From a bacterium (lineage in GTDB: Bacteria; UBA8248): a stretch of DNA of 64,000 nt. The position numbers and the translations under genes were made by a program. Each line of letters begins with the position of its first letter. Positions within the stretch are counted from its first letter, which is position 1. The notes under the pieces were generated by a model that saw only the letters and a list, made by a program, of their open reading frames with translations, had not been told where the DNA came from and searched no databases. The stretch is taken from the NCBI GenBank assembly GCA_965219955.1, contig OZ244799.1:3232001-3296000 (forward strand). The letters run 5' to 3'. Below are positions 5,075-26,818 of the stretch, one piece after another.

Positions 5075-6070
5075 GTGACGGAAGCTCAGCAGGACACGGA
5101 CGAAAGACGGCCCGGCATCGCGGACGCGCTCTACCGCGCGTTCGCGCTGTCGGTGGCCGCGACGACCTTCGTTTTCCTCTTCAACAACTACCTGGTCTTC
5201 TGGCATGGCTGGCCGGGCGTCGCGCGCATCTTCTCCGGCGGGGGGGCGGCGTTCCTGGCGTGGCTTCAACTCGCAGCCTACGGCATCCCGGTCGCCGCCA
5301 TCACCGTCTTCGCGCTCAGGAACCGGGAGAGGCCGTTCGCGTCCGACGCGGCGCTTCTCAGTTCCGTCACCGCCTACATCATCGCCGCGGCCTTCTGGTC
5401 GACGTTCTTCATCGGGGTCGTCGACGGCGTCATATCGTTCCTGCGCGTGGAAGGCCTCCTGCCTGCGGTGTTCGGCAAGAAGCTGGCCCAGCAGCTTGGC
5501 GTGTCGAGTTTCCGCGGCGTCTACGTGCATCTGCCCCTGATGCTCGCGGCGGTGGTGGTGGCGTGCTTCAAGCGGGGGCTCGACTTCATCTGGCTCGCGC
5601 TGCTCGTGGTCGTCGCCGAGTTCCAGATCGTCATCGCGCGCTTCATCTTCTCCTACGAGCAGGCTTTCATGGGCGATCTGGTGCGTTTCTGGTACGCGGC
5701 GCTGTTCCTGTTCGCCAGCGCCCATACCCTGGTCGCCGGGGGCCACGTGCGCGTGGACGTGCTGTATACGCATTTCACCGACCGGCGCAAGGCCCTGGTC
5801 AACGCGTGGGGCTCCATACTGCTGGGCGTGCCGCTGTGCTGGACCATCCTCGCCGTCGGCATGGCGGGCAAGGCGTCCGTCATCAACAGCCCGCTGCTTT
5901 ACTTCGAAACCTCCCAGAGCGGGTACGGCCTCTACGTCAAGTACCTGATGGCGGGTTTCCTCGCCGTCTACGCCGTTTCCATGATGACGCAGTTTCTGGC
6001 GTACTACCTTGACGCCATGGCGGTTCTTCGCGGGCAGTCGCCCAGCCAGCCCACGCACGAGCCGGCCTGA
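5075..6070 (+). CDS. dctQ: TRAP small permease (DctQ), enlarged N-terminal membrane region
   Basis: GHVRVDVLY DctQ motif in the C-terminal half; about 8 hydrophobic segments; lies between dctP and dctM. Confidence 0.85.
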   Translation: MTEAQQDTDERRPGIADALYRAFALSVAATTFVFLFNNYLVFWHGWPGVARIFSGGGAAFLAWLQLAAYGIPVAAITVFALRNRERPFASDAALLSSVTAYIIAAAFWSTFFIGVVDGVISFLRVEGLLPAVFGKKLAQQLGVSSFRGVYVHLPLMLAAVVVACFKRGLDFIWLALLVVVAEFQIVIARFIFSYEQAFMGDLVRFWYAALFLFASAHTLVAGGHVRVDVLYTHFTDRRKALVNAWGSILLGVPLCWTILAVGMAGKASVINSPLLYFETSQSGYGLYVKYLMAGFLAVYAVSMMTQFLAYYLDAMAVLRGQSPSQPTHEPA

Positions 6071-6072
6071 AC

Positions 6073-8724
6073 GTGGAACTCTTCTTTCTCGCACTGCTGA
6101 TCCTGGCCATGGCCGGGGCGCTGGCGTCGGGTTACCCGGTGGCCTTCGCGCTGCCCGGCTCGGCCATCCTGACCATCGGACTCGCCTCGCTCACCGGCTA
6201 CATCTTCGCAGGCGACGCCAGCGCCTTCTTCGCGCAGGACGGCCCCGTTCAGTGGCTCACGGCCGGCGTGACCAATTTCCGGGGCGTCTACTGGGAGGTC
6301 GAGCGCGACACCATCATCGCCGTGCCCCTGTTCGTGTTCATGGGCATCATGCTGCAGCGCTCGAAGATCGCCGAAGACCTGCTGGTGACCATGGCGCGCC
6401 TGTTCGGGCCGGTTCCGGGCGGTCTCGGCATCTCGGTGGTGCTGGTGGGGGCGCTGCTCGCCGCCACGACCGGCATTCTCGGCGCCACCGTGGTCGCCAT
6501 GGGCCTCATCTCGCTGCCGGCCATGCTGCGCAACGGCTACTCGCGCCAGCTCGCCACCGGGACCATCTGCGCGGCGGGCACGCTGGGGCAGATCATCCCG
6601 CCCTCCGTGGTGCTCATCATCCTGGCCGACCAGCTCTCGAACGCCACCGATCAGGCGGGCACGCTGCGGCTGGTGGACTTCAAGGCCTCCACCGGCCAGT
6701 TCATCATGCCCACGGAGTTCAGCATCACCTCGGCCAGCGCGGGCGACATGTTCCTGGGGGCCATCGTTCCCGGCCTGGTGCTGGTGGGCCTCTACGTCAT
6801 CTACATTCTCACGGTCGCCCTCATACGGCCCGGCACCGCGCCGGCCATCCCCATGATAGGAAGCTTCGACCGCCAGTTCGCCTTCCGCGTCCTGTTGGCG
6901 CTCATTCCGCCCCTGGCGCTCATCCTGGCCGTCCTCGGCTCCATCATCGCGGGGGTCGCCACGGTCAACCAGGCCGGCGCCATCGGCGCCGTCGGCGCCA
7001 CCATCATGGCGGGGTACCGCTTGAATGAAGGGCAGCGCGGGTGCTACACGCCGGCCATCATCGCGGGCCTTTCCCTGCTGGCGCTCTTCATCCTGCTGGC
7101 CACCTTCGATCTGAACATACGCACCATTCACGGCGCCTACGAGGCCATCGGCGTGACGTTCGCGGCCATCGCGGTCTTCGGGCTGCTGGTCTCCGTGGCC
7201 TGGAGCGGCTGGCGCGCCTACCGCAGCGAGAACATGCTCGCGGGCGTCATGGTCGAGACCGCCAAGACGACGGCCATGGTCTTCATCATCCTCCTGGGCG
7301 CGGCCATGCTCACCTCCGCCTTCCGGGGCTTCGGCGGCGAGGAGTTGGTGAAAGAGTTCCTCACCACCCTGCCGGGCGGTTTCTGGAGCCAGTTCATCGT
7401 CGTCATGGCGGTCATCTTCATCTTGGGTTTTTTCCTCGATTTCATCGAGATCGCGGTGGTGGTGGTGCCCATCGTGGCCCCCATCCTTCTCTCGGACCCC
7501 TCGGCCAACGTCACCGCGGTCTGGCTCGGGGTGATGATAGGCGTCAACATGCAGACCTCCTTCCTGACGCCGCCGTTCGGTTTCGCGCTGTTCTACCTGC
7601 GCGGCGTGGCGCCGCCCGACGTGCTGACGACGGACATCTACAAGGGCGTGGTCCCCTTCATCGTGCTGCAACTCCTGGCCCTGGGCATCGTCGGCTTCTA
7701 TCCTCCCCTGGTGAACTACCTGCCGATGCGCACCTCGCTCACCGGCGAGACCGCGCCGCCGCCGCGGAACCCGCGCTTACAGAACTGCCTGGAGCAGCAC
7801 CTCTTCGAGCAGTACGACCGCGACGGCGAGACGATACGCGCGAGCATACGAACCGCGCAGAAACTCGATACCGGCTATCTGCCCAAAAAAGTCCGGGGGC
7901 AACTGACCGGCGGCATGGAGAAGGCGGCCCGGACTTTCGATCTGGTCGCGCAGGTGCGCCGCACAAATGCCGAGCGAAAGAAGTTCGGGGAAACCTACAA
8001 GCCCTTGCATACCGTCATCAGGCGCGTCAACGCGGAGGAAAGGCGGATCGACCGCGAGATCCGCGAGATCCGCACCACCATCCGGCGCATGGGGGGCGAC
8101 ACGGACGCCGCGGCGGCGCTGCGCCACGAGATCGAGGAGTTGACGAAGCAAAGGGCCCGCGCCGAGGCGAGACGCCCCGAAGGCGGGAAGAAGATGCGCC
8201 GTCGTTACCTGACGCTCGAAAAGAAGGAAACCCGCGCCCGCCGCAACTACCGGCGCAACGTGGACGACGCCTACACTTCCGTGCGCAAGGTGCGCGAGAT
8301 GCTGGCGAAGGTAGCGGCTCTTGAGAAGGCGGGTGCCAAGCTCAAGAGGCTGCCCGAAATCCTCCAGACGCAGACGGCCAAAAAGGCGGGTTCCGCCATC
8401 CGTGAAGCCGAGCGGGCGTTCAGAAAAGTTCCCGGAACCTACAATTTACGTTCCAACCTCTCCAGGGCGCGCTCGGATTCCAGGCGCGGCAAGTCAGGCC
8501 TGAAGCGCGCCGAAAAGCGCCTGAAAGATGTGATCGCCCTGTTCGAGCGCGAGGTGGCCTGGCGCTCCCGCGCCGCCCGTGAGCTCGACTCCGGCCTGGC
8601 CACTTACGAAGCCGCCATACGCGGAACCATCGGGATCCGGCAGCTCGAGCGGCTCCCAACCCGGCTCGCGAAACCCGTGGCGGCCTGCATGTCGAACCAC
8701 CGCGACATCTCGCTGAGCTTCTAG
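6073..8724 (+). CDS. dctM: TRAP large permease (DctM) with long C-terminal helical extension
   Basis: AVPLFVFMG, GTLGQIIPPS, QTSFLTPPFGFALFYL motifs, followed by about 330 aa of charged, coiled-coil-like sequence. Confidence 0.92.
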   Translation: MELFFLALLILAMAGALASGYPVAFALPGSAILTIGLASLTGYIFAGDASAFFAQDGPVQWLTAGVTNFRGVYWEVERDTIIAVPLFVFMGIMLQRSKIAEDLLVTMARLFGPVPGGLGISVVLVGALLAATTGILGATVVAMGLISLPAMLRNGYSRQLATGTICAAGTLGQIIPPSVVLIILADQLSNATDQAGTLRLVDFKASTGQFIMPTEFSITSASAGDMFLGAIVPGLVLVGLYVIYILTVALIRPGTAPAIPMIGSFDRQFAFRVLLALIPPLALILAVLGSIIAGVATVNQAGAIGAVGATIMAGYRLNEGQRGCYTPAIIAGLSLLALFILLATFDLNIRTIHGAYEAIGVTFAAIAVFGLLVSVAWSGWRAYRSENMLAGVMVETAKTTAMVFIILLGAAMLTSAFRGFGGEELVKEFLTTLPGGFWSQFIVVMAVIFILGFFLDFIEIAVVVVPIVAPILLSDPSANVTAVWLGVMIGVNMQTSFLTPPFGFALFYLRGVAPPDVLTTDIYKGVVPFIVLQLLALGIVGFYPPLVNYLPMRTSLTGETAPPPRNPRLQNCLEQHLFEQYDRDGETIRASIRTAQKLDTGYLPKKVRGQLTGGMEKAARTFDLVAQVRRTNAERKKFGETYKPLHTVIRRVNAEERRIDREIREIRTTIRRMGGDTDAAAALRHEIEELTKQRARAEARRPEGGKKMRRRYLTLEKKETRARRNYRRNVDDAYTSVRKVREMLAKVAALEKAGAKLKRLPEILQTQTAKKAGSAIREAERAFRKVPGTYNLRSNLSRARSDSRRGKSGLKRAEKRLKDVIALFEREVAWRSRAARELDSGLATYEAAIRGTIGIRQLERLPTRLAKPVAACMSNHRDISLSF

Positions 8725-15390: not shown

Positions 15391-18300
15391 ATGATCATGA
15401 CTCACCACTGGATGAAACTGGCGGCGCTGGCGGCGCTGCTCGCCGTGACCGCGTCCTGCAAAACGATGGATGAAGGCTCCGCTTCCGGGACGACGCCAGC
15501 CCCGGCCGCCGCTGTTGCCACGCGGGCGAAAAGCCCCGTCCCCGCGGGTTGCGCCGGCTGGAATACGAGCGCCTTCTTCAAAACCGCGACGCCCGAGAGG
15601 GTGAGCGCATGCCTCAAGAAGGGCGCCGACCCCAACGCGCGAGACCAATGGAACGATACTCCATTGCACTACGCAGCCCAGTCGAGCGAGAACCCCGCAG
15701 TCGCCGCCGCCCTGCTGGAAGCCGGGGCCGACCCGAACGCGTGGAACAAATTCGGGGGCACTCCTCTTGACTATGCGGCGTATCACGATAACCCCGCCGT
15801 AGCCGCTTTGCTCAGGAAAGCCGCTGTTGCGCCGCAGGCGGGCAAGCCCAGGCCCGCGCCCAAGAAGGCGACCGCCGCAAAGCGCACCGCGCGCGCCGCC
15901 GAGGCGCCGGCGAAAGAACCAAAAGCCGAAGCGAGCCGCGCACCGGCGGCTGCGACCAAAGAAAAGACCGCCGCCGCGAATTGTGGTGGCTGGAACACAC
16001 CCGCCTTTTGGCAAACCGTGACACCGGAGCACGTTGTGGCTTGTCTCAAAGCCGGCGCAGACCCCAACGCGCGGGACGAAAAAGGCTATACCCCCCTGCA
16101 TGAGGCGGCATGGTCGAACGAAAACTCCGCCGTCATCGCCGCATTGCTCAAGGCGGGCGCCGACCCCAACGCGAAGAACAATCTAGGCAATACCCCTCTG
16201 CGCGCAGCGGCCAACAACAAAAACCCCGCCGTCCTCGCCTTGCTCAAGAAAGCCGCCAGGGAGACGGGCGCACAGGGAAGAAAAGCCGAACCTGCACGCG
16301 AGAAAGCGACCGCCGCGAAGAAGATGGTGAGCAGCGACGCGGCCCCGAGCAGGAAGACGCATAAAGCCGCCGCCGCAAATTGCCCGGGCTGGAACACGCG
16401 AACTTTTTTCCTGGACGCGACGCCCGCGCGCGTGAGCGAATGCCTCAAGGCGGGCGAAAGCCCGAACGCGCGCGACCAGTGGCGCACTACCCCCTTGCAC
16501 TGGGTTGCGCTTTACAGCGAACACCCCGCCGTCGCCGCCGCGCTGATCGAAGCAGGCGCGGACCTCAACGCGCGTGACAAATGGGGCAATACTCCCCTGA
16601 ATAGCGCGCTCAAGAACCGCAACCCCGCCGTCGCCTCTTTGCTCAGGAAAGTCGCCGGGAAGACGGGCGTACAGGCAAGAAAAGCCGAACCTGCGCCCGA
16701 GAAAGCGACCGCCGCGAAGAAGATGGTGAGCAGCGACGCGGCCCCGAGCAGGAAGACACATAAAGCCGCCGCCGCAAGTTGCCCGGGATGGAACACGCCG
16801 GACTTCTTCAAAACCGCAACGCCCGAGGAAGTAAACGAATGCATCAAGGCCGGCGCCGACCCCAAGGCGCGCGACGAATGGGGCAGGACCCCCCTGCACC
16901 GGGCGTCGCTCTACAACAAGAACCCCGCCGTCGTCGCCGCATTGCTTAAAGCCGGGGCGGAGCCGAAAACGCCGAACAAATGGGGCTCTACCCCCCTCCA
17001 TAATGCAGCCCGGAACGAGAATCCCGCCGTCGCCGCCGCGTTGCTGGAAGCCGGAGCCGACCCGAACGCGCGGGACAAATACGGCAAGACCCCTATCCAT
17101 TGGGTCAGATATAACGACAACTCCGCCGTCGTCGCATTGCTCAGGAAGGCCGCCGGGGAGTCCCCGCAAGTGAGCAGGCCCGAGCCTGCGCCCGCGAAGG
17201 CGAGCGCTCCAAAGAGCGTGGCGCGCGCCGACGAGGCTCCGGCGAAAGAAACGAAAGCCGTAGCGAGCCGCGCACCGGCGGCTTCGGGCAAAGAAAAAAA
17301 CGCCGACGTGAATTGCACGGGCTGGAACACGCGCGACTTTTTCACGGACGCGACTCCCGAGCACATGAGCGAATGTCTCAAGGCCGGGGCCGACCCGAAC
17401 GCGCGCGGCGAATGGGGCAGGACCCCCCTACATTGGGCGGCGCTTTACAACAAGAACCCCGCAATCGTCGCCAGCTGCGCGGGCTGGAATACGTTGGCCT
17501 TCTTCCAGGCCGCGACGCCCGCGCGCATGAGCGAATGTCTCAAGGCCGGGGCCGACCCGAACGCGCGCGACGAGTGGGATAGGACCCCCCTGCATTGGGC
17601 GGCGCTTTACAACAAGAACCCCGCCGTCGTCGCCGCATTGCTGAAAGCCGGGGCCAATCCGAACGCGCGGGACAGTTTCGGCAAGACTCCTCTCCAAAGG
17701 GCCGGATTGAACGGCAACCCCGCCGTGGCCGCTTTGCTCAATAAAGCCGCCGGCGAGTCCGCGCAAGTGAGCAAGCCCGAGCCTACGCCCGAGAAAGCGA
17801 CCGCCGCGAAGAAGGTGGTGAGCAGCGACGCGGCAGCGAGCAGAAAGACGCATAAAGCCGTCGCCGCACTGCTCAAAGCGGGCGCAGACCCCAATGCGCG
17901 CGACAAACAGGGCAATACCCCCTTGCACACGGCAGCCCGCTGGAACAAGAATCCCGTTGTCGTCGCCACCCTGGTAAAAGCGGGTGCAGACCCCAATGCG
18001 CGCGATAAGCAGGGCGATACCCCCTTGCACGGTGCAGCCCAATCGAACAAGAACTTCCCCGTCGCCGCCGCCCTGCTCAAAGCGGGCGCAGACCTCAACG
18101 CGCGCAATCAATATGACGCTATTCCCTTACACTACTCAGCCTTGAACAAGAACCCCGCTGTCTTCGCCACACTGCTCAAAGCGGGCGCAGACCTCAACGC
18201 GCGCAATAAACGGGGCTATACCCCCTTGCACACGGCAGCCCGCTGGAACAAGAACCCCGCCGCCGCCACCCTGTTAAAAGCGGGCGCAGACCCCAATGCG

Positions 18301-19857
18301 CGCGACAAGTGGGGCTATACCCCCTTGCACGGTGCAGCCTCGAACAAGAACCCCGCCGCCGTCGCCGCCTTGGCAAAAGCGGGCGCAGACCTCAACGCGC
18401 GCGATAAACGGGGCTATACCCCCTTGCACATAGCAGCCTTGAAAAAGAACTTCGCCGCCGCCGCCGCCCTGCACAAAGTCGGAGCAGACCTCAACGCGCG
18501 CGATAAACGGGGCAATACCCCCTTGCACAGGGCAGCCCGCTGGAACAAGAACCCCGCCGTCGCCGCCGCCCTGGCAAAAGCGGGCGCAGACCTCAACGCG
18601 CGCGACAAAAAAGGCAATACCCCCTTGCACTGGGCAGCCCGCTGGAACAGGAGCCCCGCCGTCCTCGCCGCCCTGTTGAAAGCCGGGGCCGACGTGAGTG
18701 CAAAATCGAAACACGGCATTACCCCCCTACGAACAGCGGCAAATGCCTACAAACCGAATCTCGCCGTCCTCGCCCCCCTGGTAAAGGCCGGCGCGGATCC
18801 GAATGATCGGGACGGGCGCGGGGATACCTTGTTGCACGACGCCTTCCAGGCGGGAAACTCCGCTGTCGCCATCGCCCTGCTCCAGGCCGGGGCGGACCCC
18901 AACATCAAAAACCGCGACGGGGACAGGGCGGAGGACAAGGACAAAAAGGGCATCGCAAAGCGCGCGGACGTCAGGCAGGCCCTGGCCAAGGCGGGTTCAC
19001 TGGGGCGCGCATACGGATCGGAGAAGAAGAAAAGAGAACGGGCGCGCAGAAGGGCCGCACAGCGAGCGCGCTCGTACAGTTCCTCGCCATCCTACTCGTC
19101 CGGCTCCAGCCGCTCCTACTCGTCCAGGCGGCGCTCCTCTTCTAGTTCGGGGGGGCTTTTCCAGGCCACCGGGGGCCAGAGGGCGCTTGAGCGCATACGG
19201 CGGCAGCGCAGGGCGCAGGAGCGCGAGAACGCGAGAATCCGCGCGGAGAACAGACGCAAACAGGCCGAATACAGAAGACGGCAGGCGGAGGCGCGCAGAC
19301 GGGCGGAGGCCAGAAGGCAGCGCGAGGAGACCCGGAGACAGGCGGAATACAGGAAACGGCAAGAAGAAAACAGGCGCCGCCGAGAGGAGGCGAGGCGCGA
19401 ACGGCAGGCGCGCCTGCGCCAGGAAGCCAGGAGACGCGAGGAGATGGCCGCAAGGCGGCGCGCCGAACGCCTGAGACAACAACAAGCCCGAACGCGGACG
19501 ACCTGGAGGCCGAAGCAGGCGCTCAACGCCGACGCCGCGCACTGCCTGAAAAGGAAGCGATTAAAGGGCGGGTTCAACGTAGCCGACAACGAGATAACGA
19601 ACACGTGCAGCTACACGATTGAAGTCGTTGGGGTGTGTCTTGGCGAATACCCTTTCAAGGCGAATTATCCCTTCAAAGGCGCCTACACTTCCCCCGGTGC
19701 TTGGGGGAAGACGCTTCGGCCCAACAGATGGGAGCCCGACCCGAATATGGACATATGCCACAACAGAGGTCGAACCGCTCGACATATCGCTTGCAAAGCC
19801 CCGTTCACTCCACGCTTCCTGTCGGCGAACGGGGGCACTTACGGCTGTTTCGAGTAG
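15391..19857 (+). CDS. Large ankyrin-repeat lipoprotein with repeated Cys-capped ankyrin modules, Arg-rich coiled coil and Cys-rich C-terminal domain
   Basis: Lipobox-like VTASC; more than 20 GADPNARD..G.TPLH.AA repeats; six C-x-GWNT-x2-F caps; Ala/Lys/Pro linkers. Confidence 0.92.
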   Translation: MIMTHHWMKLAALAALLAVTASCKTMDEGSASGTTPAPAAAVATRAKSPVPAGCAGWNTSAFFKTATPERVSACLKKGADPNARDQWNDTPLHYAAQSSENPAVAAALLEAGADPNAWNKFGGTPLDYAAYHDNPAVAALLRKAAVAPQAGKPRPAPKKATAAKRTARAAEAPAKEPKAEASRAPAAATKEKTAAANCGGWNTPAFWQTVTPEHVVACLKAGADPNARDEKGYTPLHEAAWSNENSAVIAALLKAGADPNAKNNLGNTPLRAAANNKNPAVLALLKKAARETGAQGRKAEPAREKATAAKKMVSSDAAPSRKTHKAAAANCPGWNTRTFFLDATPARVSECLKAGESPNARDQWRTTPLHWVALYSEHPAVAAALIEAGADLNARDKWGNTPLNSALKNRNPAVASLLRKVAGKTGVQARKAEPAPEKATAAKKMVSSDAAPSRKTHKAAAASCPGWNTPDFFKTATPEEVNECIKAGADPKARDEWGRTPLHRASLYNKNPAVVAALLKAGAEPKTPNKWGSTPLHNAARNENPAVAAALLEAGADPNARDKYGKTPIHWVRYNDNSAVVALLRKAAGESPQVSRPEPAPAKASAPKSVARADEAPAKETKAVASRAPAASGKEKNADVNCTGWNTRDFFTDATPEHMSECLKAGADPNARGEWGRTPLHWAALYNKNPAIVASCAGWNTLAFFQAATPARMSECLKAGADPNARDEWDRTPLHWAALYNKNPAVVAALLKAGANPNARDSFGKTPLQRAGLNGNPAVAALLNKAAGESAQVSKPEPTPEKATAAKKVVSSDAAASRKTHKAVAALLKAGADPNARDKQGNTPLHTAARWNKNPVVVATLVKAGADPNARDKQGDTPLHGAAQSNKNFPVAAALLKAGADLNARNQYDAIPLHYSALNKNPAVFATLLKAGADLNARNKRGYTPLHTAARWNKNPAAATLLKAGADPNARDKWGYTPLHGAASNKNPAAVAALAKAGADLNARDKRGYTPLHIAALKKNFAAAAALHKVGADLNARDKRGNTPLHRAARWNKNPAVAAALAKAGADLNARDKKGNTPLHWAARWNRSPAVLAALLKAGADVSAKSKHGITPLRTAANAYKPNLAVLAPLVKAGADPNDRDGRGDTLLHDAFQAGNSAVAIALLQAGADPNIKNRDGDRAEDKDKKGIAKRADVRQALAKAGSLGRAYGSEKKKRERARRRAAQRARSYSSSPSYSSGSSRSYSSRRRSSSSSGGLFQATGGQRALERIRRQRRAQERENARIRAENRRKQAEYRRRQAEARRRAEARRQREETRRQAEYRKRQEENRRRREEARRERQARLRQEARRREEMAARRRAERLRQQQARTRTTWRPKQALNADAAHCLKRKRLKGGFNVADNEITNTCSYTIEVVGVCLGEYPFKANYPFKGAYTSPGAWGKTLRPNRWEPDPNMDICHNRGRTARHIACKAPFTPRFLSANGGTYGCFE

Positions 19858-20242
19858 GGATCCGGCGGGACGACGGACTTGGATGAGCGCCGAGAACACG
19901 GGAGAGCGACCCCTGCAGCGAGGAGGGGCCTTCTCCCGGTACGGGCGCGGGGTATATACGAAACTTGGAGCGTATGCGAACGGACACCGATTGGCAGGTA
20001 TGCCGAGCTTCGGTGAATGCGAGCGCGAACGATTTTCACCGCAAGTGCGTGAGCAAGAAACGAGCATGCAACGGGCAAGGAGGGAAATTCACTTACGACG
20101 TACGCGTGCGCAATCCCAAGATCGGGTCCTGCGAACATACCTGGGAGATGACGTCGAGGTGCACGCCTTATCGGCCCTGGTCCTTTACGCCGAGCCTCGG
20201 AACCAGCGACGCCGTCCGGTAGGCGGATGACGTCCCGGCTCT

Positions 20243-20401
20243 CCCTCGATACGGCGCGCAAGCGCGCCTGCTCGGAATGAGGGAGGGCGCCCTCGTATCG
20301 ACCTCGCCCTGCGAAGCCGCGAAGCCCTCCAACGCTCCTCACCCCGAGCCGCCGCCGAAGAGCCTGCCCTGAACTTGTCGAAGGGCGGCGTATTGAAGGG
20401 T
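20243..20401. repeat. Degenerate copies of the ACCCTGAGTAG/CCTTCGATACGGCG repeat family with nested 24-bp unit
   Basis: CCCTCGATACGGCGCGCAAGCGCGCC; ACCCCGAGCCGCCGCCGAAG-[AGCCTGCCCTGAACTTGTCGAAGG]-GCGGCGTATTGAAGGG. Confidence 0.7.
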
Positions 20402-20619
20402 TCGGGGCGGTAAATGCGCCGCCCGCGCCTCGGCGGGACCGGTACAGGTTTTTCGCGCACGATTCCACCTCGCCCAGACAGCGGACCGGACAGGCGCAGG
20501 GGCCTACCCAAAGACTGCGTTTTCGCAGGGGAGAACCTGCGCATTTGCCCGCATTTGCCGTCATAGCGTTATTTCGGACATCACAAAATTCGCCATAAGG
20601 ATATCGGCAACGTTCTTCG

Positions 20620-20648
20620 TTGCGTTTGCGAAATAAAAACTACATAAT
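20620..20648 (+). promoter_or_regulatory. Putative sigma70 promoter of the three-gene island operon
   Basis: TTGCGT-N17-CATAAT, followed by an AGGAAGG RBS before the ATG at 20690. Confidence 0.55.
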
Positions 20649-20689
20649 CCACTACCGTCTAAATTTCTATCACAGGAAGGCCGCATTGT

Positions 20690-21376
20690 ATGAATCAGAC
20701 GCAACCTCCTGATTCTCATGGGGGAAATGAAACCAAACTGATCGAGTTATCCGTCGTGCTGGTGGCGAATTCCAATAATCCATCTATCATCAATCCCGAC
20801 TTCCTGCGCTACAACAAAATCGTGGACGACAGCTATGAGGTTCAAGACTCACCCATTTCCACGCCTGCATTTTCCCAGGTGATATTCAAAAATGGGATTA
20901 CAATAGTGTCGGATCCTGCTCGTGTCATAATTGGACAGTCTGGAACTTTAGACAGAAAGAATGTCGTGTCTCCTGAAGTCGCGAAGCGCTATTTAGAATG
21001 TGTTCCCCACGTACCTTACCGCGCCATCGGCATTAACCCGAAAGGTATTGTGTCTGGGCAAGAACCAAATCCTGTTGTCAATATGGTTCGCGACAATGGC
21101 TTATGGATGTCATTCAAGGACGTGATTCCTGAGGGCCAGCTAAAAGCCATATATCGCTACACAGAGAGAACTATTTTCCTTGATATCGGCGGTGCGGACG
21201 TAGCGGAAAACGATCAAACAACATCTGGAACACTGTTTCAGGCGAATATTCATCGTGAGTTGACGGAGACGGATGCGGAGTCTCGCATCACGCGTTTATG
21301 GTCGATTCTGGATTCTTGGGGTAGCGATCTGGAGGACTTTTACAATTTAACGAGCAAGTTCTGTGGGGAGGGATGA
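20690..21376 (+). CDS. Uncharacterised protein, TIGR04255-like (tentative); gene 1 of low-GC triad
   Basis: SVVLV..NNPSIINPDFL, HVPYRAIGIN and LFQANIHREL motifs; low GC; promoter and RBS. Family assignment is from recalled motif resemblance only. Confidence 0.75.
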   Translation: MNQTQPPDSHGGNETKLIELSVVLVANSNNPSIINPDFLRYNKIVDDSYEVQDSPISTPAFSQVIFKNGITIVSDPARVIIGQSGTLDRKNVVSPEVAKRYLECVPHVPYRAIGINPKGIVSGQEPNPVVNMVRDNGLWMSFKDVIPEGQLKAIYRYTERTIFLDIGGADVAENDQTTSGTLFQANIHRELTETDAESRITRLWSILDSWGSDLEDFYNLTSKFCGEG

Positions 21377-22071
21377 TGTCCATTGCAACAGGTCCGGAAC
21401 CAATACCGGATTCAGAGACGGCAGCCGACATTGAGCAACTGGTAGCCGATTTTGAGCATCGGGGTTCACATCTGAATCTGGGCGCGAGGTCGGTTCACAG
21501 GATACATGTAGTCGGCAGGACCAGTTTCAGTTCTTCGAGTTGGTTTCCAGCGGTTCGAAAAACACTTTTTGAGGATGCTCCACAACCTGAATCACAACCC
21601 GGCAATATCTTGTCCTGTATATTGCCGTTTCTTCATCCGGGGCAATCGAAGCTCAAGCCACGGGATTGGGTTTTGCTTGGAGAGTTCGCCACACATGGCG
21701 CAGAGCACTTCCCCATACAACTTGCCGACGCCTTGCGCGATCTCGATGAAGTCGTCGAGGAAGCTGAAGAAGAAGGGTTTCCCGTACCGAAAGAGGTTGT
21801 TCTCGAAGATGCGAAACGGTTGTTGAGGGAAATGTACGCCATATCGCCACGCCGCTTCGAGGTTTATCCCATGCCGGACGGCGAAGTCGCCATCGACGCG
21901 CCAGATGGAAAAGGAAGTTCCGTGCTGCTCTTGTGCGATTCGGAAGGCGGCGCGTTGTGCCTGGTCAACATGAAAGGCAAACATCGACGCGCCCGGTATT
22001 CCACCACCGAAACGCTTCCTGACGGATTCATTCGTGAAGCCATCGCAGAACTTGAACGACAGAACGATTGA
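21373..22071 (+). CDS. Uncharacterised protein, possible antitoxin; gene 2 of triad
   Basis: ATGA overlap with gene 1; variable-looking N-terminal half, compact acidic C-terminal domain (EEEGFPVP...AKRLL...YPMPDGEVAID). Confidence 0.72.
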   Translation: MMSIATGPEPIPDSETAADIEQLVADFEHRGSHLNLGARSVHRIHVVGRTSFSSSSWFPAVRKTLFEDAPQPESQPGNILSCILPFLHPGQSKLKPRDWVLLGEFATHGAEHFPIQLADALRDLDEVVEEAEEEGFPVPKEVVLEDAKRLLREMYAISPRRFEVYPMPDGEVAIDAPDGKGSSVLLLCDSEGGALCLVNMKGKHRRARYSTTETLPDGFIREAIAELERQND

Positions 22072-22505
22072 ACCCTGAGAAACCACCCGAGAACATCGGG
22101 CAGGACGAGGAACTCGGGCGCGGCGTATTCTCAAGACGCAGAGCGAGACGTGCACAACGCTCAAGAGTCCCAGCGGATGTATTTTTAGAAAAAGAAGGCG
22201 AACCCAAGATTTCCGTTGACAGGCTGAGCTTGGCGCCGATGGATAAGGCCGTCGAGATTGCCGAGGATGTAGCCTCGAATCGTCCTAACGCTACCTTCTG
22301 CGGTTGGGCTTTCCTCACCGCCTCAAGCGCACGGGAAAATGAACGAGAAGCCGTTGCTTCACCGAAAGAAAATAACCCATATCACGCCGATATCGTATTG
22401 CCCCAAGCAGCGGTCGAAGATCGAGAAGAACAAAAACGGCACGCGCTGGAACTGGCTGATGCTTCAAGCTGGCGAGAACGCCCGAACCCTTCCCAGAACA
22501 CTTGA
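22068..22505 (+). CDS. Uncharacterised small protein with ART/RES-like motif pattern; gene 3 of triad
   Basis: TTGA overlap with gene 2; EELGR ... ISVDR ... NPYHADI pattern (conserved-looking R, S and late H). Confidence 0.72.
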   Translation: MNPEKPPENIGQDEELGRGVFSRRRARRAQRSRVPADVFLEKEGEPKISVDRLSLAPMDKAVEIAEDVASNRPNATFCGWAFLTASSARENEREAVASPKENNPYHADIVLPQAAVEDREEQKRHALELADASSWRERPNPSQNT

Positions 22506-22534
22506 ACTCCTTTCGCGTCCACCGCCATCTGCAA

Positions 22535-23632
22535 TCAGCTACCAGCCTTCGTCCATTCGAGACGCTTCTTCAACCTGTTCAGAGGATGCCCCCAGGGCAG
22601 ACGGCGTTCGTGTTGAAGCCTGCCGATTACGATGCCCGGGGCGATGCCCTGCTCCTCCGCGAACCGCCGAACAGTCGAGACATTTTGGGGCTTTTCCTCG
22701 ACAAACTGCTCCCAAACCTCACTCGGGATCAGGAAATCCGCAGCCCAGCGGTTCGCTTCGGCTTCGTGTCCTTCCGCGCCGTTTTCTTTCGAGTCAATGA
22801 AAACGTCTTTCTTGCTGTGCAGCAGGATGTGCGCGGCTTGGTGGAACAAGGTGAACCAGAGATGATCGTCCGTCTTGTGGCGCGCGCTCAGGGCGATCAC
22901 CGCCTTTTGGCTCGAAAGCCACCATGCGGCGCCGCTGATGGCGGCCTTCGGCAAGGGTGGTATCAAGGCCAGGACGACGCCCGATTCATTGCAACGCTCG
23001 CCCGCCCTGCGAATCGCTTCGCCGAACGGTTCGCGCGTGAGCGTACGGATTTCCCTTAGGGATTGCTTGAAGCGAGCCGCGTTGAACTCGGCGCAAGTTT
23101 GCCGTTCGGCTTCAAGCTCACTCAGTCTGCGCCAGGTCGCCAGAGCGCATTCGTCGCTCTCGAAGCTCGGCGAATGCCGGTAGTTGACACTCGCCCATCC
23201 ATATTTGACGGCCCAGGCTTCGACCGAGCCGACGCCGAAAAAGGCGAGCAGTCCCGACACGCTATCGGCGCTCGAGGACGGCTTATCCATCACCCCGCGC
23301 TTGACAAGAGCGTTTACGGGAAAGCGCTTTGCCCACGAAATGGATTTTGCCGCTTGTTTGGCTTCGGCTTCCTGCGCCCGGTGGAGCTTGTAGTCGGACT
23401 CCAGCCCAAGCCAGATATGAGCGGCCACTCCCGTTACCTTCTCGAATTGAAGGGCCGTCTCCGGTTCCACGGGAGCCTTTCCCGCGACGATTTCGCTGAT
23501 GAGTTTGGGTGAACGGCCGCACCGGCGGGCGAAATCCGCATACGACATGTCATGCGCCTCCAGGCGTTCCGCAAGTATCGTTCCGGGCGCAACTGCGTAG
23601 TCCGGCTGGTACGCATTGGCTGGTCCGATCAT
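22535..23632 (-). CDS. higA: HigA-type HTH antitoxin fused to ImmA/IrrE-like metallopeptidase domain
   Basis: PDYAVAPGTILAE, HTH, ALQFEKVTG..WLGLESDY; WFTLFHQAAHILLH and EAEANRWA; GGAGG RBS. Confidence 0.9.
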   Translation of the reverse strand: MIGPANAYQPDYAVAPGTILAERLEAHDMSYADFARRCGRSPKLISEIVAGKAPVEPETALQFEKVTGVAAHIWLGLESDYKLHRAQEAEAKQAAKSISWAKRFPVNALVKRGVMDKPSSSADSVSGLLAFFGVGSVEAWAVKYGWASVNYRHSPSFESDECALATWRRLSELEAERQTCAEFNAARFKQSLREIRTLTREPFGEAIRRAGERCNESGVVLALIPPLPKAAISGAAWWLSSQKAVIALSARHKTDDHLWFTLFHQAAHILLHSKKDVFIDSKENGAEGHEAEANRWAADFLIPSEVWEQFVEEKPQNVSTVRRFAEEQGIAPGIVIGRLQHERRLPWGHPLNRLKKRLEWTKAGS

Positions 23633-23645
23633 GATTTGAACCTCC

Positions 23646-23981
23646 TCAATGGTAGTCGACCACCTCGATGATGATCATCGAAGTGACCTGGCTCAGGTCG
23701 ATACCGCCGTCATCCTTTTCGGGAACCGGATCGTGGTTCGGCTTGAAGACGAGCCTTCGGGGATGAACGAGATCGACGGCGTATTGCCCTTCGCGCTTTG
23801 CTTTCAGGGGATGACACCGCTCCGGCGGCGTCGACGGCACGTCCGCCAACGTCCGGGCGTTGCTTAAAACCGCCAGACGCGACTTGAGCCTCTCCGCCAT
23901 GCGTCCGCCATACGCCTTTTGAAGTTCGTTCTCTGAGTTGAGTGTCTTCTCAAGTTTTCTGGTTCGGAAAGCGATGTCCAC
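23646..23981 (-). CDS. higB: HigB/RelE-type toxin (killer suppression protein family)
   Basis: (V)DIAFRTRKLEK...YG...PPERCHPLK..REGQYAVDLVHPRRLVF...IIEVVDYH; directly upstream of higA. Confidence 0.88.
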   Translation of the reverse strand: MDIAFRTRKLEKTLNSENELQKAYGGRMAERLKSRLAVLSNARTLADVPSTPPERCHPLKAKREGQYAVDLVHPRRLVFKPNHDPVPEKDDGGIDLSQVTSMIIIEVVDYH

Positions 23982-24147
23982 TTCGCCAACTTTCGGGCGG
24001 CAACCAGGGAACGAGTTTATTTTGTTACCTATCAGGTAATGATATAGATAAACATATGGGCCGTCAAGTATGGGTGCACAGGAAGGCCGGGTCGCGACCT
24101 GTCCCTGCCACTTCGACGCCTCCTTCCTCCCCGTTCGGGCTTGCCGC

Positions 24148-24464
24148 GCATATCCGCGCATTTGCCGTCACGGGATTTTCGCGGCGGTGGGGCATGCCCG
24201 GAAGGCCGCCGGTCGGCCCCCGGTTTTTCAGGCGGCGGAGCGGGCGCGGATCGCGGGTGCCGGGTGGACGCTCCGGCGAAATGAGGAACATGCAAAATGC
24301 AAAAAATAATATCCGAAAAATTAGATAAAATTAGATAAATTCACGGGGTTTTTCGATAAATAAGTGTAAATTATTTTTTCGGGAAAGACGCCGCCGCAAC
24401 CAGGCGCAGGGGGATTCTGCCATGGCCTGCGATACATGCGGTGACGGCAAATGCGCGGATTTGC
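24148..24464. mobile_element. MITE-like element with 24-bp terminal inverted repeats and AT-rich core
   Basis: GCATATCCGCGCATTTGCCGTCAC (24148-24171) versus GTGACGGCAAATGCGCGGATTTGC (24441-24464): 23/24 inverted match. The core contains a tandem AAAATTAGAT repeat. Confidence 0.6.
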
Positions 24465-24522
24465 AGGGAGTTGCGCCCCGCTCAGGTTGTCCGCCCGGCG
24501 CGCGCGTACCTCATCGCGCGCC

Positions 24523-24750
24523 CTAAGGTCCGGGATAGGCCTCGGGGGGTTTGGCGTCGTCCGTCGATCTCTTTGATTTTACTCGCCTTCTGGTGACGAT
24601 GGAATCGTCCTTGAGCCGCGCGATCGGGTCTTCCTCATCGTCCCCGCGTCCGTAGGCGTTGCCCTTCTCGAAGGCGAGCCTGCCGAAGAGGCGGTTGAGA
24701 TTATTGCGCGCGACCTCCTCGTCTTCGGCCTCATGCTTTCGTTTCTTCAT
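24523..24750 (-). CDS. Small hypothetical protein (75 aa)
   Basis: ATG preceded by GGAGAG; charged sequence MKKRKHEAEDEE...; host-like codon usage. Confidence 0.5.
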   Translation of the reverse strand: MKKRKHEAEDEEVARNNLNRLFGRLAFEKGNAYGRGDDEEDPIARLKDDSIVTRRRVKSKRSTDDAKPPEAYPGP

Positions 24751-24790
24751 ATCTGCTCTCTCCCCTGTTTCGTCGAGTAAAGTCAATAGT

Positions 24791-25897
24791 TTACAGGAAT
24801 CGCCACCTCTCGCCCACCGCCATGACCTTGACGCGGGAGGCATCGGCGCCCGTCTCGGCCATGTGCTGCCTGAGCACCCTGGGCGGATGGTCGAGCGGCT
24901 CGTCCGTCAGGTCGAACGTACCCCAGTGCATGGGGATCATCCACCGCGCGCCCAGCTCCTGAAACGCCCGCAGCCCCTCGGCGGGGTTCATGTGGGAGTA
25001 GCGCATCATCCAGCGGGGCTCGTACGCGCCGATGGGGAGCATCGCCACGTCGATGGGGCTGAACTTGCGGCCGAACTCCCGAAACCCTTGAAAATAGCCG
25101 CTGTCGCCGCCGTGATAATACTTTCGCCCGCCGGTTTCGACCAGCCACGAACACCAGAGCGTGGAGTCCCGCGCCATCCCGAAGCGGTTCGACCAGTGCT
25201 GCGCGGGCAGGCAGGTCAGGCGGACGTCTCCATGCTCAGCACTCCGCCACCAGTCGAGCTCCACGGCGCGCCTGCCAAGCGACTCCACGAACCCGCCCAG
25301 CCCCATCGGAACGAACCACGTGACGTCTTCGGGCAGGTTCTCAATCGTCCATGAATCGAGGTGATCGTAATGGTTGTGGGAGACCAGCGCCGCGGCGCCT
25401 TTCGGAATCGAGGCCGCAGGCACGCCAGGGGGCTGACGGCGTCCATGCCAGAAAGCGCCCGCGCCGAAATGCGGGTCCGCCAGGACGACGTTCGGGCCGT
25501 CCTGAATGATGAAGCCGCAATGCCCGACACAGGTGACGGAAGGCTCGTCCTGCGGCTTCGCCAGATACGCGCCGTCGTTGGAAACGACTGGAACTTCCGG
25601 CGTTTTGGCGTTTTTGATCTCCGCGAACTCGTTTCGGTACAGGAACTTCCATTTGTACAGATTGGCCCGCGAGCCCGGGTTCGGCCACCAGGGGTTGAAC
25701 CACTTGCCCGGCTCGCCGTGCGGCCAGTAGAGGGATTCCGCCTCGCGCGAGACGAGGCCCTGCGCTTCGGGAGGCGGCGCCGTCGGCCCCTTGATGCCCA
25801 GACCCATCTTCGCGCACCCTCCCGCCAGCCCCAGGGCGCCGAGGCCTGCGAGACCGGCGCGCTTGAGAAATTTCCGTCTGCCGATTTTCGGTTTCAT
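24791..25897 (-). CDS. MBL-fold metallo-hydrolase (NAPE-PLD/RomA-like), Tat lipoprotein
   Basis: RRKFLK plus LAGGC; SHNHYDHLD, PAQHWS, GDSGY, PIGAYEP, PMHWGTF. Confidence 0.92.
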   Translation of the reverse strand: MKPKIGRRKFLKRAGLAGLGALGLAGGCAKMGLGIKGPTAPPPEAQGLVSREAESLYWPHGEPGKWFNPWWPNPGSRANLYKWKFLYRNEFAEIKNAKTPEVPVVSNDGAYLAKPQDEPSVTCVGHCGFIIQDGPNVVLADPHFGAGAFWHGRRQPPGVPAASIPKGAAALVSHNHYDHLDSWTIENLPEDVTWFVPMGLGGFVESLGRRAVELDWWRSAEHGDVRLTCLPAQHWSNRFGMARDSTLWCSWLVETGGRKYYHGGDSGYFQGFREFGRKFSPIDVAMLPIGAYEPRWMMRYSHMNPAEGLRAFQELGARWMIPMHWGTFDLTDEPLDHPPRVLRQHMAETGADASRVKVMAVGERWRFL

Positions 25898-25945
25898 CGC
25901 AACCTGCGCGGCGGCTCAGAGCGCCCCGTTCTCCGGGGACGAAAA

Positions 25946-26818
25946 TCAATCAAGTGACGCATACCACTCCGCAATCGCCCGGCCCATCTCATCGGGCGAG
26001 TCCTCATGGCAGTAGTGAAGCCCGGCCACCGTCACCTCCTCCACGTTCGGCCAGCTGCGAATCATGCTGCGGTGCTCCCCCACGAGCACGGCGCCGGGGT
26101 CTGAATTGATGAACAGTTTCGGCACGGGGTGTCGCTCCAGCCAGGCGTTGTTGCGCTCGATGATCTCGAGCACGTCCGCGGGCTCTCCCTCTATGGGAAT
26201 CTCGCGCGGCCAGGTGAGCGTGGGCCTTCTGTCCTCGCCGGGATTGCGATAGGGCCTCCGGTACTCGTCGTGAATTTCCCGAGATACCTCGCGGATGACC
26301 ATGGCGGGCAGAATCTTCTCCACGAAGAAGTTCTGCTCCAGGACGAGCTTTTCGCCCTCCCCGCTCCTGAACCTCTTGAAAAGCGCCTGTACTTCGGGCG
26401 GCCAATGGCTCCACTCGAAATCGCCGACCACCCCCTGGCAGATCACGACGCCCTTGAGCGCATCCTGTCTCTCCGACGCCCATGTGAAGCCCAGTTGCGC
26501 GCCCCAGTCGTGCGTCACGATGGTGACGTTCTCCGTGACCCCAAGCGCATCCATGAGCGCGTTCGTGAAAGGCTGGTGATCCCTCAAGCGGTACATGGAG
26601 CCGGGGAGCTTTTCGGAATCGCCCTGGCCGATGTTGTCTATCGCGATGCAGCGGCCCAGCCCCTCGACGTGGGGGATCACGTTCCGCCACATGTAGGAGG
26701 AAGTGATGTTGCCGTGAAAAAAGACGATAGGATCCCCCTCGCCCGCCTCCACGTAGGCCATCTTCCGGCCCAGGACTTGCGCGAATTTTTTCTCATACTT
26801 CATGCGAGGCTCTATCAT
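25946..26818 (-). CDS. Haloalkane dehalogenase-like alpha/beta hydrolase (LinB/DhaA subfamily)
   Basis: FHGNITSSYMWRN, HDWG, N.FVEKILP, RRPTLTWPREIP, GLHYCHEDSP. Start codon uncertain (26803-26848). Confidence 0.88.
   Translation of the reverse strand: MIEPRMKYEKKFAQVLGRKMAYVEAGEGDPIVFFHGNITSSYMWRNVIPHVEGLGRCIAIDNIGQGDSEKLPGSMYRLRDHQPFTNALMDALGVTENVTIVTHDWGAQLGFTWASERQDALKGVVICQGVVGDFEWSHWPPEVQALFKRFRSGEGEKLVLEQNFFVEKILPAMVIREVSREIHDEYRRPYRNPGEDRRPTLTWPREIPIEGEPADVLEIIERNNAWLERHPVPKLFINSDPGAVLVGEHRSMIRSWPNVEEVTVAGLHYCHEDSPDEMGRAIAEWYASLD

Follow-up and report, generated by a model that had tools for sequence, protein, structure and literature searches.

Gene layout and composition of the locus

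The DNA analysed here (the window) is a stretch of 64,000 nucleotides (nt) from a bacterium of the UBA8248 lineage (assembly GCA_965219955.1, contig OZ244799.1, positions 3,232,001 to 3,296,000, forward strand); all coordinates given for it are counted from its first letter. Positions 20690-22505 carry a low-GC module of three coupled genes, referred to as genes 1, 2 and 3. Its conserved part was found to be the C-terminal domain of gene 2 (g2C) together with gene 3, for which a fold of the ADP-ribosyltransferase (ART) superfamily is predicted. The three open reading frames (ORFs; 228, 232 and 145 amino acids, aa) were located exactly where a first-pass annotation, made by a model from the sequence alone, had placed them. 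The features of the module are as follows.

20690..21376, plus strand: gene 1, 228 aa, ATG start
21373..22071, plus strand: gene 2, 232 aa, ATG start
21373..21702, plus strand: N-terminal extension of gene 2, about 110 aa, proposed handle for gene 1
21703..22071, plus strand: g2C, about 122 aa, the conserved gene 3 partner, proposed as an antitoxin domain
22068..22505, plus strand: gene 3, 145 aa, TTG start overlapping the stop codon of gene 2
20674..20680, plus strand: possible ribosome-binding site AGGAAGG, about 10 nt before the ATG of gene 1, read from the sequence
20620..20648, plus strand: TTGCGT-N17-CATAAT, weakly sigma-70-like and a possible promoter only, upstream of gene 1

The overlaps of successive genes, ATGA at 21373-21376 (genes 1 and 2) and TTGA at 22068-22071 (genes 2 and 3), were read in the sequence as annotated. 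The annotation had also credited the module with a promoter of its own. Its letters are present, one base off the implied position (TTGCGT at 20620-20625, CATAAT at 20643-20648; 8 of 12 consensus matches). The site was not listed by a consensus scan, which returned two promoter-like sites in 20000-24600, where shuffled sequence would give 1.9. Because the match is weak and the scan count lies at the level of shuffled sequence, the two hexamers were taken as no evidence of a promoter.

The low GC content ascribed to the module was confirmed: it amounts to 0.513 for the triad and 0.629 for the whole window. In 500-nt windows it was 0.46-0.55 over 20500-22499 and 0.60-0.68 on either side. The GC content at third codon positions (GC3) was 0.50, 0.52 and 0.51 for genes 1, 2 and 3, compared with 0.71-0.83 for five neighbouring genes, among them genes for a helix-turn-helix (HTH)/M78 protein (0.71), an ankyrin protein (0.76), a metallo-beta-lactamase-fold protein (0.83) and an alpha/beta hydrolase (0.80). 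Each of the three genes occurs in one copy in the window's own genome (4,283,615 bases). Searches for tRNA genes (10000-35000) and for Rfam families (19000-25500) were negative.

Searches of Pfam, NCBIfam, PADLOC and PHROGs gave no meaningful match for the proteins of genes 1, 2 and 3, and their homologues (n = 135 close homologues for gene 3, 188 for gene 1 and 540 for gene 2) had neither names nor Pfam domains.

Conservation of the pair and forms of gene 2

Relatives of gene 3 were collected from one genome per species. The scan gave 119 relatives, from which 80 loci were kept, all in metagenome-assembled genomes (MAGs), and every ORF of the kept loci was searched with profile hidden Markov models of genes 1, 2 and 3. 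The loci cover at least eight phylum-level groups; judged by their titles, they belong to Nitrospirales, Latescibacterota, Dehalococcoidia/Chloroflexota, Alpha- and Gammaproteobacteria, orders of Acidobacteriota, Binatia, Rhodothermales, Thermodesulfobacteriota, Spirochaetia and Candidatus Entotheonella.

An ORF with g2C was found immediately upstream of gene 3 in 78 of the 80 loci, the exceptions being L038, without an intact gene 3 ORF, and L047, without g2C. At 40 of the 80 junctions there is a 4-nt overlap with an in-frame start (GTG in 20, TTG in 15, ATG in 5), and since TTG is among these starts the TTG start of gene 3 in the window is supported. The two genes are adjacent, co-directional, small, coupled and conserved as a pair, which is the layout of type II toxin-antitoxin (TA) systems. 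Three such pairs stand in tandem in a Dehalococcoidia MAG (locus L080, 7567-10483).

Gene 1 was detected in 34 of the 80 loci only. Because g2C and gene 3 adjoin in 78, the pair is the conserved core and the triad is a sub-variant. Where gene 1 is present (34 loci), gene 2 always measures 209-330 aa, and the junction of genes 1 and 2 is a 4-nt overlap in 17 of them; among the 44 scored loci that lack gene 1, 29 have a short gene 2 (89-160 aa). The ORFs upstream of a long gene 2 in L026 and L077 were considered as divergent forms of gene 1 and rejected (hhalign probability 0.3% or less).

The domain g2C (about 125 aa across the loci) is found either by itself, in proteins of about 130 aa, or behind various N-terminal parts. 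Its mean column identity is 62% (42 sequences) and it is acidic, with a pI of 4.57. The N-terminal part of gene 2, about 110 aa, is barely alignable (44 sequences), rich in S, T, P and G, and contains one recurrent S-x-W. No Pfam match, HTH and Xre families included, and no PDB match was obtained for g2C, nor was a macrodomain found with Pfam in gene 2 of the window. Fragments of TRIM B-boxes, the best PDB profile matches of g2C (E 0.057 or worse), were taken as chance, and a PqqD match of gene 2 (E 0.051) fell below the cut-off.

Ten long forms of gene 2 were scanned against Pfam; a family was found in three and none in seven. In L029 a 543-aa protein (6336-7967) consists of tetratricopeptide repeats (TPR) over its first 390 or so residues and carries g2C at its end, with a gene 3 homologue directly downstream. 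The long gene 2 of P0280 gave a partial HepT-like match. In L066, g2C comes after a full-length DarG (residues 2-338; NF048014, 446 bits, cut-off 250) in a 483-aa protein, and the gene order in 5874-8414 is DarT (PF14487, 1.3e-62), the DarG-g2C fusion and a gene 3 homologue. Two ART-fold genes thus stand on either side of one fused double antitoxin. Parts of the N-terminal region of the L066 protein are shared by L075 and L079. As DarG is a bona fide antitoxin of an ART toxin, its fusion to g2C supports g2C as an antitoxin-type domain.

Gene 2 looks like an antitoxin, as had been proposed, because its C-terminal domain is conserved and acidic, its N-terminus is variable, g2C adjoins gene 3 in almost every locus and the DarG fusion exists.

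Predicted folds of genes 3 and 1

Profile searches with gene 3 gave 945 cluster representatives at 50% identity with E <= 0.001, of which 514 had E <= 1e-10; the best 150 matches are nearly all stand-alone proteins of about 100-185 aa. In an alignment of 41 sequences the mean column identity was 57%. Invariant positions are E14, G17, R18, S22, F39, L40, S49, V50, R52 and L53 in the N-terminal half, and R72, F77, G79, W80, A81, H106, A107, I109, L111, P112, Q122, L129 and W135 in the remainder. The motif picked out at first pass (E14/L16/R18, S49/V50/R52, H106/A107/I109) is invariant or at least 90% conserved among these 41 homologues. No Pfam family, ART models included, matched gene 3 even at E up to 1; a PDB sequence profile search gave 0 matches at E up to 10, and BFVD gave none at E 0.001 or better. 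ESM Atlas leads for g2C and gene 3, DUF6098 (0.91) and AF2212-like (0.81), were not confirmed by Pfam scans and were set aside, the clusters being otherwise unnamed.

The AlphaFold2 model of gene 3 (predicted local distance difference test score, pLDDT, 92.5; predicted template modelling score, pTM, 0.85) has six strands with interleaved helices. The ART superfamily core is described in PMC8120803 as six strands, most of them followed by a helix, and this core is present in the model, at modest scores. A wide structure search of 48,161 representative chains, independent of Foldseek, placed Tse2 first (Z 7.0, root-mean-square deviation (rmsd) 3.1, 107 of 145 residues aligned, 13% identity), followed by KptA (Z 6.3), AvrPphF ORF2 (5.6), the Rhs toxin TreX (5.3) and mouse Tpt1 (5.2). 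Lower rows hold Tne2, DarT, Scabin, PltA, TreTu, protein 6b and DarT1, and also CC0527, pertussis toxin, SidE, diphtheria toxin, an Xre-RES complex and SPN; judged by name, ART-fold proteins make up 14 or more of the first 20 rows. The best Foldseek rows were KptA/Tpt1 (E 0.11, probability 0.90, template modelling (TM) score 0.46), Arr-2, the mART domain of SdeA and cholera toxin. When the top 1000 Foldseek matches were re-aligned to gene 3, KptA reached Z 7.0 (rmsd 3.0, 92 residues aligned), and the list also held Tpt1, DarT, cholera toxin, TreTu, SdeA, Arr and MbcT. Because the list of neighbours is almost purely one superfamily, the ART fold predicted for gene 3 was accepted despite the modest scores; the ART-like fold of the first-pass annotation is thereby supported by the model and by both structure searches.

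From the secondary structure of the model and the alignment, the invariant R18 lies in strand 1 and the invariant S49 in strand 2. The R-S-E ARTs have Arg in strand 1 and Ser in strand 2, as stated in PMC8120803, so that R18 and S49 fit the first two R-S-E positions. Strand 5, placed by secondary structure, starts with H106-A-D108, and the conserved E121/Q122 sit in the helix after it. The structural alignments start at model residue 12 and chain residue 1 for cholera toxin, and at model residue 15 and chain residue 4 for heat-labile toxin; R7 of the toxins would map on R18 of gene 3 if these first residues are aligned without gaps.

For gene 1, the AlphaFold2 model (pLDDT 87.7) is a pseudo-duplicated alpha/beta protein. 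Foldseek matched it to the arginine kinase McsB, S-adenosylmethionine decarboxylase (AdoMetDC) and TATA-binding protein (TBP), with 12 matches at E 0.001 or better and TM scores of 0.31-0.37. In the wide search the kinase domain of McsB reached Z 8.2, AdoMetDC 7.9 and TBP 6.9, and single halves of gene 1 resembled helix-grip proteins. According to the model, gene 1 has a double alpha/beta fold like that of TBP, AdoMetDC and the McsB kinase domain. Neither Pfam nor the structure searches gave a SecB-like match. Amuc_1102, the best PDB profile match (E 0.17), was taken as chance, and OPH (E 0.061) fell below the cut-off.

The resemblance of gene 1 to TIGR04255-type proteins suggested by the annotation was not borne out. 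None of 46 gene 1 homologues matched the TIGR04255 model (cut-off 30 bits) at E up to 1. When 41 genomes were searched in six frames, nine had true TIGR04255 genes and the window's own genome had none, and hhalign gave a probability of 0.1% for the gene 1 profile against seven true members. Judged by sequence, gene 1 is not a TIGR04255 protein.

Genomic context and interpretation

The features that flank the module are as follows.

20539..20563, plus strand: solitary end copy of a repeat that resembles a miniature inverted-repeat transposable element (MITE), left of the module
22535..23632, minus strand: HTH (HigA-type) plus M78 peptidase protein, a neighbour outside the module, convergent with gene 3
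23646..24161, minus strand: weak HigB/RelE-like ORF (PF05015 E 0.008; score 17 bits, cut-off 27)
24147..24475, no strand assigned: MITE-like repeat (about 330 bp, AT-rich centre, inverted ends of 29 nt), right bound of the low-GC stretch

Both the window's own genome and others of its genus hold dozens of copies of the MITE-like element, at 73-84% identity, and a 14-mer of its end occurs three times in the window against 0.02 expected. With the element on the right and the solitary end on the left, the low-GC segment with both TA-like modules is bracketed by the repeat. A second short dispersed repeat of 60 bp (20226-20286, about 92% identity) is found in many places in several same-genus genomes. 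Directly left of the island, 15391-19857 encodes a protein of 1488 aa that contains 13 or more ankyrin repeats and whose C-terminal part is of low complexity and rich in Arg, Glu and Ser.

The first-pass annotation had the module meet a HigBA module head to head; the pair on the minus strand is in fact convergent with gene 3, stop to stop, across a 29-nt gap. The protein of 22535-23632 matches TIGR02607 (50.6 bits, cut-off 47.7), Peptidase_M78 (1e-10) and PD-Lambda-2_B (3e-40); no other PD-Lambda-2 model matched in the two neighbour ORFs scanned. Tested as HigBA, the pair has its HigA over and its HigB under the cut-off. The true start of 23646-24161 is probably further in, because the HigB match begins at residue 65. 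A promoter-like site was listed at 24067-24039 on the minus strand by the consensus scan. The triad and the HTH/M78-HigB module probably arrived separately, since the GC3 of the HTH/M78 gene is much closer to that of the host than the triad's is. In the same-genus comparison the HTH/M78-HigB segment lies elsewhere in other genomes.

Of 22 other genomes of the genus, 5 contain a gene 3 relative, and a search of 18 more distantly related genomes gave none. The full triad is present in G022, and the pair only in G007, G008 and G016. Genomes of the genus have the right flank (24494-26798) in conserved form, and in G007 the pair lies directly against it. In a further genome of the genus (G009, locus L088, 1065-2199) a g2C ORF (E 5e-63) is present without an intact gene 3; the downstream frame holds only a 35-residue N-terminus like that of gene 3 and a ricin-B lectin match. 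The toxin of L088 may have decayed or been replaced.

The immediate surroundings of the 80 loci were examined with 134 of the 152 nearest-neighbour ORFs, the 18 longer than 640 aa having been dropped. The proximity to defence islands that had been envisaged was not seen: the nearest neighbours are mostly metabolic, with Ldh, amidohydrolase, aminotransferase and Rieske families the most frequent, and each PADLOC model was found in one or two of the 134 ORFs at most. No relatives turned up in 50,697 phage and 72,556 plasmid records; IMG/VR contigs gave a single relative, again as a g2C-gene 3 pair. A defence role is unsupported by genomic context.

We give an even chance to the reading of the module as a horizontally acquired, type II TA-like cassette in which g2C is set against an ART-fold toxin, with gene 1 and the gene 2 extension as a control layer. 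Gene 3 would be a small single-domain toxin using NAD+, which would ADP-ribosylate a cellular target or consume NAD+. The folds nearest to it, KptA/Tpt1 and DarT, act on nucleic acids. The domain g2C would bind and neutralise gene 3, made right after it by way of the 4-nt overlap. In the triad variant, gene 2 carries an additional N-terminal segment of about 110 aa, which evolves fast and is probably disordered, and gene 1 is added upstream. Gene 1 is proposed to work on this extension because it co-occurs strictly with a long gene 2; it would stabilise, sense or modify the extension and so set when the antitoxin fails. From this co-occurrence we infer that gene 1 could, by analogy, be a chaperone-like component. 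The predicted complex of genes 1, 2 and 3 scored 0.24 against a mark of 0.32, in a prediction run without controls, and counts neither for nor against the reading.

Several observations weigh against this reading. Foldseek gave no match for gene 3 at E 0.001 or better, and its fold scores are all modest (Z <= 7.0), where a Z below 8 can mean a common arrangement only. Strand 5 does not start with the Glu that is catalytic at this position in H-Y-E and R-S-E enzymes; gene 3 is mildly acidic (pI 5.35), not basic like many type II toxins; and we know of no demonstrated ART activity of Tse2, its best structural neighbour. The macrodomain of L066, considered as an independent sign of ADP-ribosylation by gene 3, was dropped because that locus has its own DarT just upstream. 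The association of gene 1 with the length of gene 2 (Mann-Whitney p = 6e-7) is uncorrected for shared ancestry, and the remaining 15 of the 44 scored loci that lack gene 1 also have a longer gene 2 (179-543 aa), with other or unidentifiable N-terminal parts. Invariant polar residues of gene 1 (N29, N35, D37, N116, N186 and H188) are more in keeping with an enzyme or ligand binder than with a passive chaperone.

ART-fold toxins in TA cassettes are already known; this family, its antitoxin domain and the TBP-like accessory are absent from the four libraries searched. The module is a member of none of DarTG, Tpt1/KptA, Tse2/Tsi2, TAC/CmdTAC and Xre-RES/ParST, because it fails the defining sequence or architecture tests of each, and the earlier statement that no described system matches it holds for PADLOC, Pfam, NCBIfam, PHROGs and the literature searched. 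No description of the g2C-gene 3 family or of a TBP-like accessory was found in the literature searched; supplementary tables of TA and defence surveys could list the family.

With DarTG the cassette shares the two-gene form with an ART-fold toxin, the structural likeness of gene 3 to DarT (Z 4.2-4.8) and, in L066, the fusion of g2C to full-length DarG between DarT and a gene 3 homologue. It differs in that gene 3 has no PF14487 match (the true DarT of L066 scoring 1.3e-62), is about 70 aa shorter than DarT and follows its antitoxin; because gene 2 of the window lacks a macrodomain, it would neutralise by binding alone. The Xre-RES/MbcTA and ParST systems are likewise antitoxin-first type II cassettes with small ART-fold toxins, and an Xre-RES toxin chain and MbcT are weak fold matches of gene 3 (Z 3.6 and 3.0). 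Gene 3, however, does not match the RES-domain model, whose signature is R-E-S, g2C has no HTH or Xre domain, and the conserved residues differ.

One alternative to the TA-like reading keeps the pair as toxin and antitoxin and makes gene 3 a Tse2-like protein, in which the ART scaffold was kept, the NAD+ chemistry lost and another mechanism (binding or an unrelated catalysis) adopted. Tse2, a type VI secreted toxin of Pseudomonas aeruginosa, is a small ART-like toxin neutralised by a small acidic partner, Tsi2. It is single-domain like gene 3 and heads the wide search; the missing strand 5 Glu and the failure of every ART Pfam model, even at E up to 1, also speak for this alternative. We nevertheless think it unlikely: KptA ties with Tse2 at Z 7.0, and the invariant R18 and S49 lie on the strands that bind NAD+ in R-S-E enzymes. 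ARTs with a replaced Glu are moreover known, namely Arr (H-Y-D), AcrIF11 (H-H-D) and ParT (R-Y-N), as listed in PMC8120803. The module further differs from Tse2/Tsi2 in the low identity of gene 3 to Tse2 (13%), in the lack of a secretion-system context in the window and in a partner that is upstream and translationally coupled.

A second alternative, which overlaps the TA-like reading and which we likewise hold to be rather improbable, is anti-phage abortive infection of the TAC/CmdTAC (toxin-antitoxin-chaperone) type, in which phage infection would upset gene 1 or the extension of gene 2 and free the ART toxin. The antitoxin extension of TAC systems, ChAD, is C-terminal; that of gene 2 is N-terminal. 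CmdT is described as an ART, and CmdTAC as a case of an ART toxin with a chaperone-controlled antitoxin, in PMC11618068, and the logic of chaperone and ChAD in TAC systems is set out in a preprint (10.1101/2024.02.24.581848). The CmdTAC-like layout seen at first pass stands in so far as a three-gene operon is present in which an extra protein, gene 1, always accompanies an extra, poorly conserved antitoxin segment. It falls short in that the gene order is another one, gene 1 has a TBP/AdoMetDC-like fold with no SecB-like match, and no PADLOC family matches genes 1-3 at E up to 1. The mostly metabolic neighbours, with each defence model in one or two ORFs, and the absence of relatives from the phage and plasmid records also stand against an anti-phage role.

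A third possibility, to which we would assign a similarly small likelihood, concerns gene 1 alone: it might be an enzyme or ligand sensor, not a chaperone, that covalently modifies the gene 2 extension or reverses or modulates the reaction of gene 3. The six invariant polar residues, the enzyme domains among its best folds (McsB kinase and AdoMetDC, besides TBP) and the likeness of each half to ligand-binding helix-grip proteins are in favour; against it, the matches are all weak (TM 0.31-0.37; Z <= 8.2) and were compared by fold, not by active-site motifs, and gene 1 has no family match.

The weakest alternative, which we consider very unlikely, is that there is no toxin system and gene 3 is a small transferase of the KptA/Arr/CC0527 kind, non-toxic and active on a nucleic-acid end or small molecule, with g2C as a regulatory or substrate-presenting partner and a role in repair or xenobiotic inactivation: its closest enzymatic folds (the NAD+ lobe of KptA/Tpt1, Arr and CC0527) include no classical toxin and the neighbours in other genomes are mostly metabolic, but the upstream partner with its 4-nt overlap, the L080 triplication, the L066 DarG fusion beside DarT, the patchy distribution within the genus and the foreign GC content are typical of TA cassettes. 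Although KptA is the best enzymatic match of gene 3, the likeness is to its NAD+-binding C-lobe. Tpt1/KptA, of the H-H-h ART clade, has an N-terminal winged helix, an NAD+ lobe and an R-H-R-R tetrad (PMC8120803). Gene 3 is a single 145-aa domain without the winged-helix lobe, aligned to KptA residues 86-180 only; it has an invariant Arg in place of His in strand 1 and no Pfam match, and the R-H-R-R tetrad was not identified in it.

A wider form of the TA-like reading is possible, if doubtful. Gene 3 would found a large new clade of ART-fold toxins (945 clusters), nearly all in uncultured bacteria, with a non-canonical R-S-(H/D) active site and maybe a nucleic-acid target, and g2C would be a portable domain, attached to DarG, to TPR arrays or to a disordered handle read by a TBP-like third protein, so that the triad would be a SecB-independent, convergent counterpart of TAC systems.

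The family has been overlooked so far because it is spread over uncultured bacteria and missing from collections of cultured phages and plasmids. The ART-fold toxins of DarTG, ParST, RES and CmdTAC each revealed a new ADP-ribosylation target or chemistry, and a large family without the canonical catalytic Glu could add a new ART chemistry or target. The domain g2C, alone, fused to DarG or combined with a handle and a TBP-like protein, would be a new example of TA regulation.

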